Shown here piece after piece: positions 18,456-64,000 of a DNA stretch of 64,000 nucleotides (within the stretch, counting starts at the first letter, position 1; each line of letters begins with the position of its first letter). Source of the stretch: Amoebidium appalachense (Eukaryota > Protista > Ichthyosporea); assembly GCA_963693365.1 (NCBI GenBank), contig CAVNZM010000002.1, positions 4,170,259-4,234,258 on the forward strand. The letters run 5' to 3'. The notes beneath the pieces were generated by a model, which saw only the letters and a list, made by a program, of their open reading frames with translations, was not told the DNA's origin and did not search any database. Position numbers and translations under genes: made by a program.

Positions 18456-22185
<3,730 letters not shown>

Positions 22186-33693: not shown

Positions 33694-43980
<10,287 letters not shown>

Positions 43981-47976: not shown

Positions 47977-50900
47977 CCCCCTTTTCTGCATCCCCCTCCC
48001 CCTCTCCTCCTTCCCACAATTCTTCCGCCCAACTGCTCCACCTCCTTACTTCCTTGCACGTATCAATCCATCTCTCCTTCCAACCCAAGTGACACCAGTT
48101 TTTTGTCAGACAACCTGCCTCCCCAGGCCCACTTATTATGCCTGTCCTGTTCCCCTCCCCCCCCCCTCCTCCCTCAGGAGGGCCTCTGCCCATTCGTCCC
48201 TCCTTTTCAAGTCCTCCATTACCTCTTACCTCCCCTAATTCTCATTATTCTCTAATAGTATACCTATATCTTCCATCCTACCTTTTTGGAAGCTCCCTGC
48301 TTCTCTTCCACCTATTTGAAAGCATCTGCATCTACCCCCCCCCCCCCCCCCCGTTCATAGCCCCTCCTTCATCAGTACTCCCTTACATCTGCCCGGCCCC
48401 CTTCAGAGTGCCCCCCCCCTCCCCCCCCCCCACACACACACCCCTCCCCTTTCACACACATGCACACACGAACGCACCCATGCATGCACGCATGCACCCT
48501 CCCTCGCAGCCACGAGCGCACACACTCTTATTCACTTATAGAATTGTTAATAATCTAATGCCCCCCCCCCCCCCCCCCCCCCAACCCCAACCCACCCACA
48601 CACGCACACACACACACACGCCAAGGTTTCCCTTGTTCTGCTCCTCGGCCTTTCCGCCTTCCCCATAATCTGTCTTTCTCTCTCTTCCTCCCCTCCCCCC
48701 CCCCCCCCCCCCCCCCAACCCCACCCCACCCCACCAGCACTGCCCTACCACCCTCCCACTTCTTGTCTTTGCTTATTCTTCCTTGTGATGTGCAACACAG
48801 GGACATATCCGGGCCACCTGAGGTCCAGCAACAACGCCTTCTTCAAATTCTGGGTGCCTGGAGAATGGAGCTTATGGAAACACCCGCTGACGGCAACTGT
48901 TTGTTTCATTCGGTGTGGCATTATATCAATCAGTATCTACAAAGTGGTCATGTAGCTACCCGTGAACACCTCAACACATTGGGGTTTACAGCTAATATGG
49001 AGCCTATAGAGGCGATTGGACGGCTACGCGAACTAATGGTAAACGAATGGCGGCGAAATCTAGCAGAATACCAAGGATTCCTTTCAAGGGTGACCCTCGC
49101 ATACGTAGCTGATGATTTCCGCTGTCCTCGGCGCGCCCATTTTGCTTCTGCAGCCGGTGACGCGATGGTGCTGGGCTTAGCCAACGCACTCCGCATACCA
49201 ATAACCATTTTTAGCACGATTGCCAATCACGGTGTAGTTGCGGTCACTCCACCCACCGTCATCGAACCCAACATTGCCATACCCGTATCACTTAACGGTG
49301 CAGCAGATCATTACTCAGTGGTAATACCTCGCTTGTCGCATGCGAACAAAATCTCGGACAACAACCAAGCACAGACATCACACTCAGTTGACACGGAAAA
49401 CTCGACGGAGTTGGCGTCTAACGCTAACACAACTGACACGTTCGGTGGGTTGCCCGCCAAGGGCTGCAGCTGTAATAGAAACAGTAAGGATAGAACACGT
49501 TTTTTTTGTGGTTTTAAGAACGGCGGGGGGAAAGTGCAGGCATACGATGGGCATGAGCGTTGCATATGCGCAAAGAACAAGCGGGCATGCACCCAGGCAT
49601 GCAGGTGTGAGAATTGTGGCAACAGGTGAGCCGTATGATATGCATTTGCTACTTTTCTTCTTTTGCATCCTCTATTTGCCCACACTTGGTACTTTATAAT
49701 CGAAACCTTAACTTGGCCAAATCCAGGTATTTCTGCTTGTCCCTCTCTTTATCCCCCCCCCCCCCCCCCCCCCCCTTTCCCCAAGACGGGTGACCTACTC
49801 ATGTTCAAGTGAAACAGTATCTGAGTTGGGTTTCGTTAACGAGGGGAATAGGTCGAAACTCGGGTACTGTGGATGACGTGGGCCCCCCCTGAGGATGGGC
49901 TCTGCTTATTATGCATACTCTTTATGTATGGCTTGCATTCTGCATCGTGTTATCCGTTTGTTCTTGTGTACTTCGTACTTTTTGACGCATTCAAAACCCC
50001 CCCTTTCCCCCCCCCCCCCTCCCTCCCCCCCCCCCCCCCCCCCGAGGGGAAAGAAAAGCCCCCTCTCCCAATCCCCTCCCCCTCCTGTATCCGTCGTTTC
50101 ATGATGTCTAACCCCTCCCCCTCCCCCCCACCTTCCCCACTGCTCACCACCTGCACACCCGCACACCATACACAAACTTAAACACACACACGCATGCACG
50201 TGTGCACGCACACACACAGCCCCTCCCCCCCCCCCCCCCCCCCCCCCCCCCACCCACACACACACACAATGCATCCGCGCATCATGGTCCATGCATACAC
50301 GTGTGTGGATAGATGCACAGGTGCACGAATCCACGCACGCACGCACCCACAGAGCACGTGTGCGCACGCACACACAAACACACATGTGTACACGTGCGCG
50401 CGCATTCACACGCACACACAAACGCACATACAAATGCAGTCATGGACAGCGGCCAGAGCCAAACCGTCCAGGTCGCCCGTCTACCATGCAGCTGCATTTA
50501 TCCGGCGAAGGGGGGAACCTTTCCCTGAGAAGTGGTGATGGGTCCAACACCACCCATACGGCCAACACAACAGCCACCAGGGGCAAGGCCACTGCCACGG
50601 TTCCAACGCAAAGGCGGCGCGCACGATTCACACAAACACGAACCACAGATCAGAATGGTTTGGAGTATTATGTGTCTGTGGGCGAGGAGGTACGTTCGGG
50701 TAGATGGTCGGATGCGGAGACCGCGTTGATTGAAAGTATTGTTATTTCGCTTGCGGAACAAAAGTTGCCGGCAACAGAGGAGGACATATTTGCACATTAC
50801 CATGCAGCATTGGAGGGCAACGAGGAGGGTGTGGGGCTGGATGCCATCCTTTCCAAAACGTTGAAGCAAATCAAGTCAAAAATAGAACACATTGAGAAGG

Positions 50901-53629: not shown

Positions 53630-54999
53630 GCTTCGTGTACATGCCGGGTCAGTTTTCGTACAGCCGCTTGCAAAGGTTATTTTACTGAATTATACACTTC
53701 TATTACTCAGGTACATGTTTTCTGCTTGAGGATAGTTTGTTTTGAGTGGGTTGGCTTTTTGAGGTATATGGTAGTGCTTTCTTTTAAATGTAACGTGGTG
53801 TGGAGTAGCAAATGGGCGAATGCGTGTTTTATTTTTCCATTTTGATAATGCCAACATGTTTCTGTGTGTACATGTGTGTGTGTGCGCGCACGTGTGCTCT
53901 GCTGTGTCCTCTTTTTCTCTTTGCGTGTGCGGTTGGTGGGGGTAATGGTACTCACCCGTCTTGTTAGTTGGTAGCCAAACAAGTTGTGCTTCACGAGGCT
54001 CTGGGGCTTGTGTTGCTTGTGTCTGGCCCATGTTTGTGTCTGGCCCAAGCCAGCTGGTGGGGTATTTTCTCACATGGCACGCGCACCTGCAGTCCTGTTG
54101 TGTGTGTGTGTGTGTGTTTGGGGGGGAGGGGGGGTTCCCTGTCACCTCCTCTTCTAGGTTGCACCAAACTCTCACTTGTTTTTTTGTTTGTTTGTCACTG
54201 CCCAATAATCGATATATGGAAGTGTGTATGGTTTTATATCTTGGTAACAGAGTTCCCTACGAGTTTTGTGCTTTGAAAGGGGGTTCCTCTTTTCGTGATG
54301 CCTATGCACATTCCATTCTGCTCAAGCGCATCGAACCTAAGCAGGTGTGAATTGATTGTGGCCGTAACGGGCGGAGAGGGGCACTTTGGGGGGAGGGGGG
54401 GGGGGGGGAGGAGGGGGGGTTATGCATACACGACATGTAGACATGCCCACGTCATGTCCATCACTCCTAACCCCCTGCATTCTTCCCCGCCGTAGATCAT
54501 GAACATCAACGGACACGAAGTCACCGGCCTGGGCCCGTGCGAAGTTCAAGAACTCCTGGACAACGGCACAAAAACAACGCTCGAAGTTTCTGACGCGCCT
54601 CTCATACGCACACTCTCTTTCCCGTGCGCAAAGGGAAAACCAAAAAAGGAGCCGCTTGGTTTCGTTTATTTCAAGTCGCAGGCGAGGTTCGTTCAGAGTG
54701 GTTCGTTTGCGGAGAGGGGAGGGATGGAGGTTGGGGACTGTGTGATTGACGTTGACGGGGTGAGTGTGTTCGGTATGCCTGATCACGAGGTGGTGGAAAC
54801 GATTAGGCAGGCGAGATTGAAAGTTGACGGGGATGATGTTGTGTTGAGGGTAATGCCGGCATGCAAGGCGGAGAAATTCCTAATTTGCTTTCGCGAAATT
54901 TTGAGGAGGAGGGGTCAGAGCCACCTGCAACCGTACCAGGTGCTGAGCCCGAGGACACAGACGATTGGTGGGTGGCTGGGCGATAGGTGCTGCTGCTAG
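52923..54999 (+). CDS. Syntenin-like tandem PDZ protein B (2 exons, 262 aa)
   Basis: Exons 52923-53207 and 54496-54999 join as GLDFGDQ|IMNING (syntenin GLRFGDQVLQING). Also N-terminal SLYP, linker DAPLIRT, PDZ2 PLGFVYFK...VDGVSVFGMPDHEV...VLRVMPA; ends DRCCC*. Confidence 0.88.
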
Positions 55000-55809: not shown

Positions 55810-56531
55810 AAAAAAGTGTGCAAGCACACGCGCGCGCGCGCCTCCGCGCTTGACACACACACACATCCGGAAGCAAGAGAGCCTTGAATTCCGAATGAGA
55901 GAAAACTACCTTCTCACACGTAGCAGAGTCTGCACTAACACAAGTAGAGTGTATAGTCGTTGCACACACACACATGGAGGTGATCAGTCTCTATATGGGT
56001 GCAATATACCACCTACTAAGTGTGTACTTAATCGGGCTGCATGCACTATCACCTAAGTATCACACAAGTGTCCACACAGTGCTCGGAGAGTCTGTTGCAA
56101 CAGTCAAATATCGTTATAACTCCCAATATTATTATGTTACATGTGCGGGTTTATATGCTCCGCCGTGATCCAGTCACCAGCCATCCAGGATGGCATCCGG
56201 GTTGACTACGTAATCCCTAGATCTGGATGGTGCGTTCCTAACCAATCATATGGCAGTTAGATATCACAATTCATCCTAGGAATCACACGATCCATCACCT
56301 AGCCATCACACAAAAACACGCGTACACCGCTGTTGGATGGTTACATATATCACAAACACGAATAATATGGTGATATTGGGGTTGTATATCCAACACACCC
56401 CTTACAACACAATAGCACCTAATCTACAAATCAGCCAATCATATCGCAGCGTCGATTGCTGCACCCTCAGCCAGGCACTGGTTGCCTGCAGCAATAAACT
56501 AGCACACCCCTGCCTCCACATCACATGGTGA

Positions 56532-59500
56532 TCACTTGCTGTCCATGCCCATGGCCTTCTTGCAGCTCTCGAGGGCAGCACGGGGCAGGGCCATGGTCAG
56601 CGCATCAGCCGCCTGCTGATTGGTCGGCACGTAGACCAGCACAACGTTGCCCTACTTGACGTGCCAGCGCACCAGGTGCAACTTGATGTCGATGTGCTTG
56701 GTGCGAGAAAAATCTACGGGGTCCTTGGCAATGCTGATGCATGCCATATTGTCCTCATACAGCACCATGGCCTCCTCGGTGCTGAAACCAAATTCGCGCT
56801 GGAGTTTGCGCAACCACATGGCCTCCTTGGTGGCGCGGGCCGCACTCACATACTCAGCCTCTGCTGTGCTGTCTGCCACCACGGTCTGCAGCTTGGAGCA
56901 CCAGCTGATGCCTCCGTTGCTGGCCAGAAACGCAAAGCCGGAGGTGGAGCGGTGGTTGTCTGGGTTGCCTGCCCAGTCGGCATCCACGTAGCCAATCGCA
57001 TGGCCCGGCACCTTGACGCGCTGGTAGGTGATGCCGTGGCTGGCAGTCCCCTTGAGGTTGCGCAACACGCGCTTTGCAGCAATCAGGTGGGCCTGGCCAG
57101 GGTTCTGGTTGAACCTGGCAAGCACCCCTACGGCCTGAGCAATGTCTGGCCGGGTCCAGCTGGCCAGGTACATCACACTGCCCACGATGCCCTGGTACAG
57201 CGCCACATATGGCGCCATGGCGCTGATCTCCCGGGGGTGGCAGGGCACTGGGCCTTGCTCAGCTTGTCGAGGGTCATGGGTGTGTCCACAGCCCTGCAGT
57301 CAGCCATGCCGTATTTCTCCAACACACGTGCAGTGTAGGCAGACTGGTGGATCTTGATGGTGCCGAGCTCCCTGCAGATCACAATCTGCACCCCTAGGAA
57401 GCAGTCGGCCAGAGGCATCTCCTTGATGGAAAAGATGGTGCCCAGCTGCTTGGCCAGCTGCTTGGCTGCCTGCATGCTGGCTGTGCTGGCCACCATGTCG
57501 TCGATGTGGATCACCAGCAGCTCCATATGCTTGCCCTTGCCGCGAATATACAGGCAGGGGTCGGCTGCAGCCTGCTTGAAGCCCAGCTTGGCCAGGCCGG
57601 CTGTGAAGGTGTCGCCCCACGCTCGTGCAGCCTGGCGCAGCCCGTAGATGGCCTTGTGCAGCCTGCAGACAAGGTGCTCCTGGCCGGGCACCACATACCC
57701 CTCGGGCTGAGCCATGTAGATTTCCTCGCTGAGCTCAGCATTGAGGAATGCACTGTCTACATCGTACTGGCTCAGGTGGCGGCCCAGTGGGCTGCGGCAG
57801 TGGCGATCAAATACCTGGTGGTGGTCGGGCTGGCTGTGGGGGCAAAGGTGTCGGTGAAGTCCACACCAGGACGTTGGCTGAACCCTTTGGCCACCAGTCT
57901 GGCCCGGAACTTGGTCACCTCATTGACGCCGTTGTGCTTGACATCATACACCCAGCGATTTTTGATTGGTCGGCGGCCCTCGGGCAGTGGCACTAGCGAA
58001 TAAGTGCCGTGGCGCTGCAGTTTCTCAATCTCGGCATCACATGCCTGCTTCCACATGGTGGCATGGTCTGAGACCATGGCCTCCTTGTAGGAGTTGGGTA
58101 TGGGCACCTCCGACACCAACAGTGCAGGCTGCAGGGGCTGCTTGCCGTGCACCAGCGCAGATGCAGCTGCAGTCATGGCCAGCGCTTTGGCCTCAATCAC
58201 GGTGCCGTTGCCATTGCCCAGGTGCTGCTGGGTGCTGAAACGTGTCCACTCCGTGTCACCCTAGGCAGGTGGTGGCTCGGCACGTTGCTGTCGGTGAAAT
58301 GCACCCGCTTGGCGATTGGCTGTGCTGACTTGGCGGGCGACGAGTCCATGCGCGCACGCTTAAGCATGCCGGCACCCCCTTGCGCTGCCCCCTCATCTTC
58401 GCTCTCACTGTCGCTGTCATCAAAGCCATCGCTGCTGGTGCCTGTGGCCGTGGTGGCCACAGTGCTGGCAGGGTCCGAGTCCCTGCCTGTCTCCTCCTTG
58501 GTGGTGGTGTGCTCCTCCTGCACAAATGGGTCATCTGCGCTGGTCTGGCCAGGTGCAGCCGGGCTGGTGGCCATGCGCATGCTCGGGTTGAGGGCAGTGG
58601 GCGTGCCCTTCACCAGGGTGGCGGCCTCGTTGAACTGCACACTCCTCCTCACGACCACTGAACCGAAACTGCCACTGGGGGTAACCAGCAGGATGCGGTA
58701 GCCCTTGGTCTCCTCCCCGTAGCCAATCAAAATGCCCCGCTGGGCACGTGGTGCCAGCTTGTTGCCGCACTGCTCCTTGGCGATGGTGGGGTAGGCTAGG
58801 CAGCCATACGCACGAAGGTAGCCTACACATCAGGCACCTGGTTGTAGAATGCCTGCCAGGGTGTCATGCCAGACACGGCCTTGTGGGGGCTCATGTTGAT
58901 CAGCAGCACCGCCGTGCCGACAGCCTCGGGGCAGCGGTTCTGCGGGAAGCCCGGCACAGATGCCATCATGGCCCGGGCCTTGTCTATCACCGTGTAGATG
59001 TAGCGCTCAGCCACACCGTTCTGGCCGTGTTAAAATACACGTTCATGTGTGTATAATACGTCTAGAGTTGCAAGAATTCGAAGTTGTTGCATACTATAGT
59101 ATATACTCTGTAGAAATCATATATTATCTGTTCCTCTCTCTCTCCCTCTCTCAGTGAAACGCTGCTGCTTCCTCTGTATCCAATCATTTGCCCTTTGGAT
59201 ACACGTTCTTGCTCTCCATTCTGATAGGTCTAGTGTACGTGTTCCTGACGTACTACACCTGCACGCCAAGAGCTGTGCACATATCAGACCATGGTAATAA
59301 TATTGTGATCAAGTAGATTCAATGTTTGTATGTTTATGTGATTAACTATATAAACATTTCCACTTTATTATTATCCATTTGTCAGTTGTTTTGCTAGGTT
59401 GTACATGATGTACATGACCGCGAAACTGACTATGGCGTTTTCATATTCATATCTGATTGGCTGTATATCACGATTCCATATGCCCATCTGTGCGCGGCTT

Positions 59501-59858
59501 ACTGGATAAGTCGGACGTGCACTCAGAATACAGCTCAGTCGAAGCAAAGTCAAAGCAAGTTCAAGTCTGCTACGGCTCCTTGATTGTTCACGATGTAGCG
59601 TCCGCCATAAGTGCTATTCGTGGTGTTTTTACACTGCACCACTGTGTCTCTGCTTTCCCTGTCCTTGTCCTAATACTTATATAATTTTTCAGGCCGTGCT
59701 CATAGGCCACCACCATCTGATGCACAATGCCGTTGCTGATGCAGAAACTTTGGAAGCCCCGCTACTTGAATTCGCCGGCGCCGTCTGTGCGGTAGATGCG
59801 CACGTTGTGGCCATGCTGCCGCTCCATCTTGGTGGCCCAGGCAGCCAGGGTGGCAGGC
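56532..59858 (-). pseudogene. Copia pol remnant (integrase core, RT, RNase H) with frameshifts, stops and an insertion
   Basis: RTDGAGEF (59700-59858), QNGVAER, KFRARLVAKGFSQRPGVDF, IHIDD, TRPDIAQAV, GYVDADWAG, YEDN, RTKHIDIK; premature TAG at 56652. Confidence 0.93.
59030..59691. mobile_element. 662-bp AT-rich insertion in the copia integrase, 7-bp TSD
   Basis: GGCCGTG at 59023-59029 and 59692-59698; removing the insertion restores YEHGQNGVAER. Confidence 0.8.
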
Positions 59859-60367
59859 TTGAGTGGGGATGTTGGAATACATCACTACGTAGGACAGCAA
59901 GAGTCTTGAAGTATGTATGTGTCTTAGCTTTGCTTGTATTCGATTCTGCTCTCTTTCTTTGTGCTCTCCCCCTTCTCTCCCTTTTTCTCTTTTCTTTCTC
60001 TCTCTCTCTCCGTCTCTCTCTCTCTCTCTCTCTCTCTCCCCCCCCCCCCCCCTATCTCGCTCTCTCCCTTGCTTCTGTGTGCACAGATATCTGTTAGATC
60101 TGTGCACACCTGGCTCTCTTGCCTGATAGAACTTATTGTATTTTATTTGTGTTTGCTCTCCTCTGTTTATCTGAGAGGTAGCGTGATTGGCTAGCTACAT
60201 TCGTTGTCTTTGTTTTTGTTCAAAGTGGCTTAGTTTCAGTTCACAATAAGATGACTCACCAATAGTCGCGAGTGAGTACATCATATAGTGTTGGAAGATG
60301 GTATCGTTATCCAGTCCGATCGCATGAATCAGATCATGATCGGCTGGTGGCCTGCGAGATCTTAACC

Positions 60368-60440
60368 GATCTCGTAGCTCAGTTGGTAGAGCACTCGACC
60401 GGAGATAGAGGGGTCGCGGGTTCAAATCCCTTCGGGATCA
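60368..60440 (+). tRNA. tRNA-like sequence in the TRIM 5' LTR (class I body, GGA anticodon, T-stem mismatch; likely pseudo)
   Basis: 73-nt cloverleaf with A box TAGCTCAGTTGG and B box GGTTCAAATCC, followed by TTTTT. Confidence 0.7.
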
Positions 60441-60737
60441 TCTTTTTCTCATCCTCTTCTCGCTGGGGTAAAAGCCAGCACGCCTTTATTGGCGTCATCA
60501 CAACCATCGGCAGTGGTTAGGTTGTGATCTCAAGGCTAGCAAGATCGCTAGACTCTGCACCAGGACAAAATCTAAAATGGTAGCATGAACAGAGGTTCAG
60601 TGGGGACTGAGGGGGCAGTCCACCCTAACCTGATTCTGCGATTCGTCCTGAGTGGGGATGTTGGAAGATGGTATCGTTATCCAGTCCGATCGCATGAATC
60701 AGATCATGATCGGCTGGTGGCCTGCGAGATCTTAACC

Positions 60738-60810
60738 GATCTCGTAGCTCAGTTGGTAGAGCACTCGACCGGAGATAGAGGGGTCGCGGGTTCAAATCCC
60801 GTCGGGATCA
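60738..60810 (+). tRNA. tRNA-like sequence in the TRIM 3' LTR (class I body, GGA anticodon, C33)
   Basis: Acceptor GATCTCG/CGGGATC, D arm GCTC/GAGC, anticodon arm CTCGA-CCGGAGA-TAGAG, T arm GCGGG-TTCAAAT-CCCGT, A73, then a T5 terminator. Confidence 0.75.
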
Positions 60811-62201
60811 TCTTTTTCTCATCCTCTTCTCGCTGGGGTAAAAGCCAGCACGCCTTTATTGGCGTCATCACAACCATCGGCAGTGGTTAGGTTGTGATCT
60901 CAAGGCTAGCAAGATCGCTAGTCTCTGCACCAGGACAAAATCTAAAATATAGATCGTGTTGTGCATTCCTGTCTATTAATATACGTGTTATGATTGGACA
61001 CAATAGAGATGTATGGAATTCGGTTTATCGTAATGTGTCTTCACTTTGAGAGTGTCGACTATTAGGAATATATGTTTTTTTTGAAATGAGTTTCTTTATA
61101 GAGACGAGTATATATGTGTATTAATAGTGACTAGATGTATAATTGCTTGATTTATTAAGAGTTTCTAAGCTTTAGTTAGGTCGGAAGTTGGAATGCGCAG
61201 GCTCTGTCGGAATGTGTTTTTCTATCATCTGATAGAACCGATTGGTTCTCCCCCTTTAGTTGAGATAAGATGATAAGTTGCAAGTACAAAAAGACCCGAG
61301 AGCACAATATATTAAAAGGTCAGTTGTTGTTTGAAATCTTTCATGTGTCGTGAACAACTCCGATTGCCCTCTCTTTATTGTGTTGGTCGTGTTTTACATG
61401 ACACCTCTGTGCACTCTGCTCCCTTAGACCCGTCAAAACAACAGGCGCAGGACGTTGCAGGACGTCGCAGTGGTTTCCTCCTCACCACGGGAGGGGCCGG
61501 CATCAGTGACACTCGTGCCACCTTCAGGGATTTCCAGAATCACGTTCAGGCTGTGGCTGGCCGCCGCACAGCGGCGTAACCTCCACAGTTACAGTCTCAG
61601 TGCCGGCAGAAACGTTGCCAGCAGGCGCAGGAGATGAACGACGCTTCCTGCGCACCTGGGTGGAAGGGGGTGCCAAATAGCAGTCGGCAAACCCCTTGGA
61701 CTCAGCGTAAGCTAGCCACAACGGCTCAAACACCACCCTGTCAATCATTGATTGCTACCTGTCAATCTAGGCCTGTCAAACGACCGCGGTGCCATCTTCG
61801 AAGCAGTGGAAAGCGTTGCGAAGGCACAGAACCTGAGAGAAAACTACCTTCTCACACGTAGCAGAGTCTGCACTAACACAAGTAGAGTGTATAGTCGTTG
61901 CACACACACACACACGGAGGTGATCAGTCTCTATATGGGTGCAATATACTGGCTACTAAGTGTGTACTTAATCGGGCTGCATGCACTATCACCTAAGCCT
62001 TTCACACAAGTGTCCACACAGTACTCGGAGAGTCTGTTGCAACAGTCAATTGTCGTTATAACTCCCAATATTATTGTGTTACATGTGCGGGTTTATATAC
62101 TCCGCCGTGATCCAGTCACCAGCCATCCAGGATTGCATCCGGGTTGACTACGTAATCCCTAGATCTGGATGGTGCGTTCCTAACCAATCATATGGCAGTT
62201 A

Positions 62202-64000
62202 AAAACCACCACAAATTTAACTCTACATTAGTCGACACATCCACACACCCCGGTTACGCGAAAAACCGAGGCATTATTGTACTTGCCGCGCCACACGTGA
62301 GAGTGAAGTGCAAACCGGTAGCAAAAACGGAATTCTCGGTTTCTATAGAGTTTCTTTCTAATGTTTTTACTTTTGTATATTACCCACCATCTATGTCGGT
62401 TGCCGAATTGACTCACGAGTTGTCACAGTCAGTTACCAATGTCCACTGTTATTTTAGGTGATTTGAACACGCGACTCCACCACACAGACACACTGCAAGT
62501 GAGTGTCGGGTACCCATCTAAGCCCCCCGGAGCGCGCTATCCCTTTAGCAAGGTATGTCCAAAGTCACACTTTGCGGATCCCTCAAATATCCCATGCTGT
62601 CCACAACACCGACTGGGGAGTGGCCTTTTGGCAATCAACCATGTCAAAACTCTCTCTCCCTCCTAACCTCTCTAGGTCATCTGACCACTCTCCTATTCTT
62701 TTCCTACCTAAGATCTCCCTTGATCTGTTCCCCCCTCCTCCTCCCACCTTTCGCCTCCGTCTATCCCAGCTCAAGTCACAGTGGGGTAGAGTTGATGTAT
62801 GTGTATGCTATGCAACGAAACACCCTATATATATGCACCTATTAGAATCTGCACAAGCCAGACCAGATTCACATCTTGTACTAGATACATGCACTAACTT
62901 TATTGTTGATGATTTAATAGATCTCGGTGATTATGCTGGTGGTGGTAGGAAGGAATATCCCGATGCTCTCTTGTTACCAGACACCACTCCCGCTAGACTA
63001 GGTGAGCCCGCCCTGTCTCAAAATAAAGCTTGCGCCGGCTTGCTAGTATGAATCGATTTGGCCCCCCTGCTGGTATTATTGGTGATACCACTGGAGACCC
63101 CCTCATAGACTCTGATAAGTATTTCTCGGAACTGTTTAAAAATAGGGTCCGGACCCCCGCTCAGAAACCTATTGTGTGGCCTGTAGACCCATCTATCCCC
63201 ATAGAATCGATCCTCCCCTTTTTCAGTCCCGATACCATATGGTCTGTGATATCTAGTTATAGCTCTAGTAAATCTTGTGGACCTGATGGACTTCCTGCTG
63301 GGTTTCTTAAAATCCCTGTTCCCTCCTACCCACAAAAGGAAAGTGATCGTGCTATTAAACCTGATCTTACTATTATGTTAAGCTCTCTCTTTTCTTGGTG
63401 TGTTAAATGTGGACATGTCCCGTCATCTTGGCTATGATACCTTAGTAGTTAAGAAGGACTCTGGGGGCCTCATATCATCTTTTCGCCCCATCACACTAAC
63501 CCAGGTTATTCGTAGATTCTTTGAAGCTTGCTTACTTAGGTTTTTTGCACATCACCCTAGGCCTCAATCTATTCTTCACATACACCCATGCCAATCCGCT
63601 TTTCGTAAGAACAATTCATGTTATGTTCAAATAATGGCACTGCACGATTCTATGCAAGTTGGTGCACGATATGTTGGCTTTATTGATTGGAAAACTGCTT
63701 ACGATTCTGTCTCCCCTGGTCCGACCTATGGGAAAAGCTTGCTGCACGGGGTGTACCACACTGCATTGGTGTTCTGTTAGAAGCACTCTTGTCTCAAACC
63801 TATGGTAGAGCTGTGGTTAATGGGCATCTTTCATATGGTTTTGCTCGTACTAGAGGTCTCTTGCAGGGTTCATTGCTTATCCCCTTTTTGTTTAACCTAT
63901 TTATAGATGATTTGGCTGTCAAGATCCGAAAATGATGACCCTATTAATAACTTTCCGCCTGCACTTCTCTATGCTGATGATCTGTCCCTCCTTGCCCGTA
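62202..64000 (+). mobile_element. Degenerate LINE ORF2 (APE endonuclease + reverse transcriptase), 5'-truncated, runs off the window
   Basis: APE motifs VYYPP, ILGDLN, SDH; RT motifs KSCGPDG, FRPITL, QSAFR, FIDWKTAYDSV, RGLLQGS..PFLFNLFIDDL, LYADD; several frameshifts and stops. Confidence 0.92.

Follow-up and report, generated by a model that had tools for sequence, protein, structure and literature searches.

A young TRIM family carrying a tRNA-like unit in each LTR, very probably of the Helenus type, in a likely holozoan genome

Within the window analysed here, a single stretch of 64,000 nucleotides, we identified a 659-bp non-coding LTR element of the TRIM kind, in which two LTRs of 289 bp enclose an interior of 81 bp and each LTR harbours a tRNA-like unit followed by a T5 run. 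The element is a member of a young, dispersed family and, as we hold with very little doubt, of the Helenus (TRIMp3) type; it thus belongs to an already named kind, since Helenus is the tRNA-bearing group of TRIMs. Taken as a whole, it is probably a non-coding Helenus-type TRIM that is transcribed by Pol III from the A and B boxes of its 5' LTR and mobilised by Copia-type helper enzymes. The coordinates of its parts and of the surrounding retroelements are collected in Table 1.

Table 1. The element, its parts and the retroelements around it, in positions of the window
Feature	Position	Strand	Basis or remark
Left TSD, TATAG	60284..60288	+	Sequence; empty-site host LTR forms in run contigs skip 60283-60947/60949
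5' LTR, 289 bp, start TGTTGG, non-canonical AA end	60289..60577	+	Sequence comparison
Leader arm antisense to tRNA positions 1-10, 5' copy	60352..60361	+	
tRNA-like unit of 5' LTR; A box 60375-60386, B box 60419-60429; unpaired at position 64 of the T-stem	60368..60440	+	ARAGORN, Rfam
T5 of 5' LTR, likely a weak Pol III terminator	60443..60447	+	Strength after PMC9278858
PBS TGGTAGCA, abutting the LTR without spacer	60578..60585	+	
Non-coding interior, 81 bp	60578..60658	+	
PPT (polypurine tract)	60650..60658	+	Same tract plus TGTTGGAA recurs at 59860-59877 (18/18, E 0.003)
3' LTR, 289 bp	60659..60947	+	Unrelated flanks in run contigs join at 60658-60660
Leader arm antisense to tRNA positions 1-10, 3' copy	60722..60731	+	
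tRNA-like unit of 3' LTR, T-stem intact; A box 60745-60756, B box 60789-60799	60738..60810	+	ARAGORN, Rfam
T5 of 3' LTR, likely 3' end of the genomic RNA (inferred role)	60813..60817	+	
LTR tail, four stacked hairpins, likely U5	60811..60947	+	Fold z = -4.5; 0/200 shuffles equally stable
Right TSD, TATAG	60948..60952	+	
Host element: PPT and 3' LTR (59870-61443) of another high-copy LTR element, with the TRIM inserted within	59860..61443	+	
Decayed Copia, RVT_2 and SH3 domains; LTRs 55896-56395 / 61834-62209, 95% identical	55896-62209	-	
Solo LTR, 664 bp, TG…CA, TSD GGCCG; splits the Copia integrase	59028-59691		

Sequence comparison recovered every part of the architecture that the original prediction had described, namely the 289-bp LTRs with two differences, the 81-bp interior, the PBS, the PPT and the TATAG duplication on both sides. 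The 5-bp length of the TSD is known from this copy alone, and no run contig spans another insertion. The two LTRs differ at 60431 (T) versus 60801 (G) and at 60552 (A) versus 60922 (T), that is at 2 of 289 sites, and both changes apparently lie in the 5' copy, as judged from the mismatch counts of one family contig (X14 record 15). A 6-bp duplication (ATATAG) is formally possible at this copy and was rejected, because a minor family variant with a canonical CAACA end abuts the PBS directly and so fixes the LTR end at 60577. The PBS probably pairs with the 3' end of initiator tRNA-Met. The longest Met-started ORF has 101 codons in one frame and spans interior and LTR, and the predicted fold of the entire element is rich in hairpins (z = -8.4). 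The LTR contains GATC 8 times against 2.55 expected (p about 0.001; 0.03 for any 4-mer); a link to DAM-bearing retrotransposons was considered and dropped, because most of these sites sit in inverted repeats and the preprint on DAM-bearing retrotransposons makes no mention of GATC.

The multi-copy nature of the family emerged from contigs of public runs, compared with the locus for 8 of the 24 listed runs. In six rows of loose ends (7 contigs; runs X2, X5, X9 and X17) unrelated flanks meet the start of the LTR at 60658-60660, and one further row brings another 3' flank, joined at 60951. Joints corresponding to the host repeat without the TRIM were found in all four runs examined for them; these empty sites are probably paralogous copies of the host repeat rather than an allele of this locus. 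In X2 the LTR reaches a depth of 2646-2759 and the interior 1253, a ratio of ~2.1, which suggests mostly intact two-LTR copies, and comparison with the locus-specific contigs of the same run (depth 20-38) suggests a family of some tens of copies, a rough figure as depth is not copy number. Only five substitution rows were listed when run contigs were compared with LTR and interior, four of them within the LTR, and it is this small number that marks the family as young. The young TRIM of the original prediction is thus borne out, as a multi-copy family, by unrelated flanks, empty-site forms and scarce variants. Two repeats that are 99.3% identical and lie 81 bp apart could also arise if a tRNA locus were duplicated locally in tandem, or as an assembly artefact; TSD, PBS and PPT are however in place, and unrelated flanks, empty sites and LTR-interior junctions in contigs of several runs refute such an origin, to which we give practically no credence. 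Tandem duplication at a single locus was the very outcome against which the original prediction had set its reading, and the six unrelated flanks together with the empty sites contradict it.

Several further features of the run contigs deserve a record. In X20, a 5-nt deletion in the U3 hairpin at 60695 accounts for a depth of 424 out of 2057 and is absent from the other runs among the four compared; it could represent a subfamily or a skip during reverse transcription. A low-depth contig of X2 departs from the interior at 60615, after 38 nt, into a second tRNA-like A-box motif, and a 761-nt contig of X5 enters the last 57 nt of the interior at 60601 from unrelated sequence. Both appear to be longer relatives and serve as leads toward a helper or a larger element. 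Contigs of X14 and X20 span the LTR tail, PBS, interior and U3, but an RNA origin of these two runs is a guess, so that they are no evidence of expression. Scans of metagenome contigs for exact patterns gave no match.

ARAGORN predicted exactly two tRNAs in the 64-kb window, one per LTR, and Rfam scored them at 50.0 and 57.4 bits (gathering score 29; E 3.6e-9 and 3.3e-11). An Rfam scan of 59500-61800 with E up to 1 returned only tRNA and no 5S rRNA-derived match. Both boxes are intact and fit the consensus, including the Helenus motifs TRGCY and YGG in the A box and GGTTC in the B box, and, apart from the T5 lying 2 nt past each unit, the 370-bp repeat unit contains no stretch of T reaching four letters. 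No TATA, AATAAA or ATTAAA occurs within the LTR. The full 73-nt cloverleaf with A and B boxes and T5, as originally proposed, therefore stands as to completeness and boxes, but not as to an intact arm structure: the anticodon arm is defective (C33, a G30.A40 mismatch, anticodon GGA for Ser, a variable loop of 5 nt), and the 5' copy carries G64T, which breaks the T-stem pair at that position.

One may ask whether the TRIM is a vehicle that amplifies a functional tRNA-Ser(GGA) gene, as a complete 73-nt cloverleaf found by both ARAGORN and Rfam would permit, the more so as the 73-mer, folded by itself, forms its acceptor stem. A canonical tRNA-Ser has U33, a paired anticodon stem and a long variable arm, and the unit lacks all three. 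Furthermore, a hairpin predicted in the leader removes the acceptor stem, and most units of Helenus elements are judged non-functional (PMC10886601). We therefore consider a vehicle of this kind highly improbable; the unit is tRNA-shaped, yet by its sequence implausible as a working tRNA, and a role in translation is unlikely. Nor does the unit act as its own primer: its longest complementarity to the interior amounts to 6 nt and lies outside the PBS.

As to relatives of the unit, we compared 24 viral loci with identical first 25 nt, 22 of which are Lys tRNA genes. The acceptor stem and D arm are the same as in these real tRNA-Lys(TTT) genes, and positions 66-73 are identical in 20 of the 24 loci. 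Lys(TTT) is the nearest match, with 52-55 of 73 positions identical for the 22 Lys genes, though a source isotype is not implied since the loci were chosen by their first 25 nt. A paired acceptor stem might have been read as the product of selection within the LTR; because real tRNA-Lys genes share that stem, this reading is unsupported. Separately, a contig seen in X2 and X9 shows at least 255 unrelated upstream letters that join exactly at tRNA position 1 (60738); runs labelled organism A and organism B share this flank. The contig may derive from the tRNA gene that gave rise to the unit, from a parent SINE or from a copy truncated at its 5' end.

Elements of this layout have a name since Kojima 2024 (PMC10886601), where Helenus (TRIMp3) comprises TRIMs of less than 1 kb with tRNA-derived sequence in their LTRs, found in basidiomycetes, six animal phyla and one lycophyte (Selaginella), and Ajax denotes a 5S-bearing group of nemerteans. 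The original prediction had these two names swapped, with Helenus as the 5S and Ajax as the tRNA group. Our element is shorter than 1000 bp, non-coding and bounded by two LTRs, with an interior that opens with the PBS and closes with the PPT, and with a boxed tRNA unit that is not its own primer; its TSD is of 5 bp, within the 4 or 5 bp of the group as far as one copy can tell, and the family is dispersed and multi-copy. Its 289-bp LTR and 81-bp interior fall within the ranges reported for Helenus, a group described as polyphyletic with sizes of 311-1263 bp, and a mismatch of isotype and anticodon is common to our unit and to most Helenus units, which are known to inflate tRNA predictions (PMC10886601). 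Closest in type are fungal families: fungal Helenus elements have a 5-bp TSD and a Copia-like PBS, some of them on the 3' end of iMet as is likely in our element, whereas animal Helenus elements have a 4-bp TSD and a Gypsy-like PBS (PMC10886601). Several fungal interiors even begin with the same 7-8 letters as our PBS, and fungal LTRs carry T4-5 runs right behind the tRNA part (PMC10886601), likewise as here. In our element, unlike in Helenus as described in that source, the tail after the tRNA part is longer and rich in hairpins, and a 10-bp leader arm opposes the acceptor strand.

Other systems resemble the element in part. Cassandra and Ajax also place the Pol III promoter of a small-RNA gene inside each LTR, yet theirs is a 5S type-1 promoter (in plants and nemerteans, respectively), whereas that of our element is of the tRNA type-2 kind; moreover, Cassandra builds long tandem arrays, in contrast to the mostly single two-LTR copies suggested by the depth ratio above. 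SINEs derived from tRNA (SINE2) share the tRNA-derived internal promoter and the short non-coding body, but have no LTRs, PBS or PPT and move by target-primed reverse transcription (PMC10886601). Ichthyosporeans are absent from Table 1 and Table S1 of PMC10886601, three short motifs of the window are absent from its supplement as consulted, and the titles and abstract openings of the literature searched report no ichthyosporean Helenus. Thus, the class has been known since 2024 and it is the host record that is new, likely the first Helenus from a unicellular holozoan.

How might such an element propagate? Judged from its sequence features, transcription by Pol III is probable. Yeast Pol III initiates between -9 and -12, where a pyrimidine is followed by a purine (PMC13451320), and our LTR has a single such step in this range, C/G at 60355/60356; initiation would thus be expected near -12 of the tRNA part, with G at -12. 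A T5 is a minimal and inefficient Pol III terminator in yeast, strengthened by a nearby hairpin such as an acceptor stem (PMC9278858). Most transcripts would then be short, non-translating tRNA-like RNAs, and some polymerases would run past the weak first T5, in the 5' LTR, and terminate at the one in the 3' LTR, yielding an RNA of ~460 nt with an R repeat of ~90 nt. Initiator tRNA-Met would prime first-strand synthesis at the PBS and the PPT would prime the second strand. Finally, the AA end of the LTR notwithstanding, the cDNA would be integrated by a blunt-end Copia-type integrase, with duplication of 5 bp at the target; we propose blunt-end insertion of the Copia type because the PBS adjoins the LTR and the TSD is of 5 bp.

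Alternatively, the element could be an ordinary TRIM that owes its transcripts to Pol II or to read-through from neighbouring sequence, with the tRNA or SINE part as a mere passenger that fires short T5-ended RNAs or acts as a boundary element. Indeed, a T5 only 2 nt past the cloverleaf would end most Pol III transcripts, and the match of acceptor stem and D arm to real tRNA-Lys(TTT) genes means that the integrity of these two parts may reflect recent capture and not selection. A passenger, however, fits poorly with an LTR devoid of TATA and poly(A) signals, with an anticodon arm that decayed while both boxes stayed perfect, and with the recurrence of the same layout in many Helenus families, including T4-5 runs behind the tRNA part in fungal LTRs (as given in PMC10886601). 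We accordingly find this alternative unlikely, while according it more weight than any other rival, and favour transcription by Pol III.

A Copia-type source of the enzymes appears likely, slightly less so than the use of Pol III. A PBS that abuts the LTR and starts in the manner of iMet, combined with a TSD of 5 bp, is the pattern of the fungal, Copia-linked Helenus elements. Gypsy elements of the chromovirus type likewise use iMet primers and generate 5-bp TSDs, and a Gypsy chromovirus helper is possible. The Copia element decaying next to our TRIM was rejected as a helper because its PBS is different. The host LTR that received the TRIM has 18 nt of PPT and LTR start in common with it, so that the family of this LTR may be kin to the helper.

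The locus itself is a nest of retroelements. The host LTR family has very high depth in the run contigs and contains a CT microsatellite; at this locus it has lost its interior. The decayed Copia has lost gag and part of its integrase and received at least three nested insertions, and its PBS resembles the anticodon-loop (half-tRNA iMet) type with which many fungal Helenus interiors start (PMC10886601). Degraded RVT_1 frames at 62500-64000 (+), possibly of a non-LTR element, seem to have disrupted the region of the Copia 5' LTR. A word-index protein search returned 9 distant Copia RTs, and an atlas search only PDZ/syntenin neighbours.

Further upstream, an intronless frame of 355 aa at 48562-49626 (+) matches OTU proteases weakly, short of the cut-off (E 0.0014), and is Cys-rich at its end; a repeat of ~260 bp beside it recurs at 40938 and 32794, and the frame is possibly derived from a transposon or virus. 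The window is rich in introns and microsatellites, and in its positions 1-55000 the introns are extremely rich in poly-C/G and CA/TG runs, with a CpG observed/expected ratio of ~0.5 that is partly a homopolymer effect. Two syntenin-like PDZ genes or exons lie at 18900-21200 (+) and 54496-54996 (+). The former, searched against 1.84 billion representatives, gave 222 matches; among the 10 examined, the closest reached 55%, and the second was an EukProt protein of the ichthyosporean Amoebidium parasiticum (42-43%, E 1.5e-18, over two exons). Proteins named syntenin, among the examined matches aligned to this gene, were 31-35% identical, and word-index protein searches returned no match for the PDZ exon and none for an LRR exon. 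The resemblance to the A. parasiticum protein makes an ichthyosporean host likely, although a single gene does not amount to a phylogeny, and the holozoan host that had been proposed is likely as well.

A conspicuous detail of the LTR is its leader, as positions -16 to -7 are predicted to pair with tRNA positions 1-10 in a 10-bp helix. The predicted probability of the acceptor stem depends on the start: 0.93 for transcripts beginning at -5, 0.3-0.5 at -10/-11 and 0.03 at -12; in the full RNA, the leader hairpin of the 3' copy is predicted to be kept at 0.94-0.96. Helices of at least 10 bp arose in 60 of 20000 shuffles, a test devised post hoc on an LTR that is rich in hairpins anyway, and the 14 distinct upstream regions of the viral loci with the same first 25 nt form helices of 2-5 bp only. 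Three of the four listed LTR substitution rows fall in the leader arm (in coordinates of the 3' copy); two of these variants keep the pairing and one breaks a pair. Visual inspection of three fungal Helenus LTRs of PMC10886601 gave no sign of masking by a leader. If the hairpin replaced the acceptor stem, it might lower the strength of the T5 and shield the RNA from both RNase P and RNase Z, which is the most speculative step of the proposed cycle, and a function of the leader hairpin, argued from predicted folds, is doubtful.

The end of the LTR constitutes a further peculiarity. The copy in the window ends in AA, not in CA. At 60573 this copy carries T against a C in nearly all of the run depth, and A at 60576 is what remains once the mismatches of the dominant contigs are counted (one other letter differs in X2 record 1 and X20 record 9, three in X14 record 15, four in X17 record 18). 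From these counts the common end of the family would be TCCAAAA and TG…AA thus its dominant form. The minor variant, with CAACA directly before the PBS, has a depth of 23-46, which is also that of the X2 contig departing at 60615. In vitro, the integrase of Ty1 requires CA as long as metal concentrations are physiological and tolerates AA only when Mn is millimolar (PMC8487063). An active family ending in AA is hard to reconcile with this, and the AA end is an unexplained oddity. In plants, LTRs with non-TGCA ends are mostly of Copia type (89%; 10.1101/137141). Like our TRIM, these plant elements (Ou and Jiang, 10.1101/137141; lotus, PMC9804982) have short LTRs of ~270-320 bp, a non-canonical end and a 5-bp TSD; their third terminal letter is, however, C, G or T, and TG…AA is not among the types listed in the parts of these two sources drawn on. 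Moreover, they are mostly coding and free of tRNA parts, unlike the non-coding TRIM with its tRNA unit. No LTR ending in AA was seen by eye in supplement part 1 of PMC10886601.

Although largely speculative, a joint reading of leader and terminus may be sketched, in which the leader arm captures the nascent 5' acceptor strand, so that the cloverleaf never forms, the T5 leaks and neither RNase P nor RNase Z can cut the genomic RNA, and in which the family spread after it had lost its CA end. We judge the whole of this to be improbable, a shade more so than a function of the leader hairpin by itself. If true, it would provide a model for a Pol III-driven LTR element that evades both its own terminator and the tRNA-processing enzymes, and the spread after loss of CA would imply that a unicellular relative of animals has an integrase of unusual tolerance.

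For annotation, LTR finders that demand TG…CA would miss this TRIM, and each of its copies adds two false tRNA-Ser(GGA) calls to the genome. The doubling of tRNA-like loci with every insertion had been foreseen in the original prediction, the inflation as such being already noted in PMC10886601. An ichthyosporean record would bridge the fungal Helenus elements (5-bp TSD, Copia-linked) and those of animals (4-bp TSD, Gypsy-linked), with a holozoan host and a fungal-looking type. Furthermore, as use of Pol III has so far been shown for no Helenus element, this young and homogeneous family would offer a clean test of it, and likewise of read-through at the T5 of the 5' LTR.
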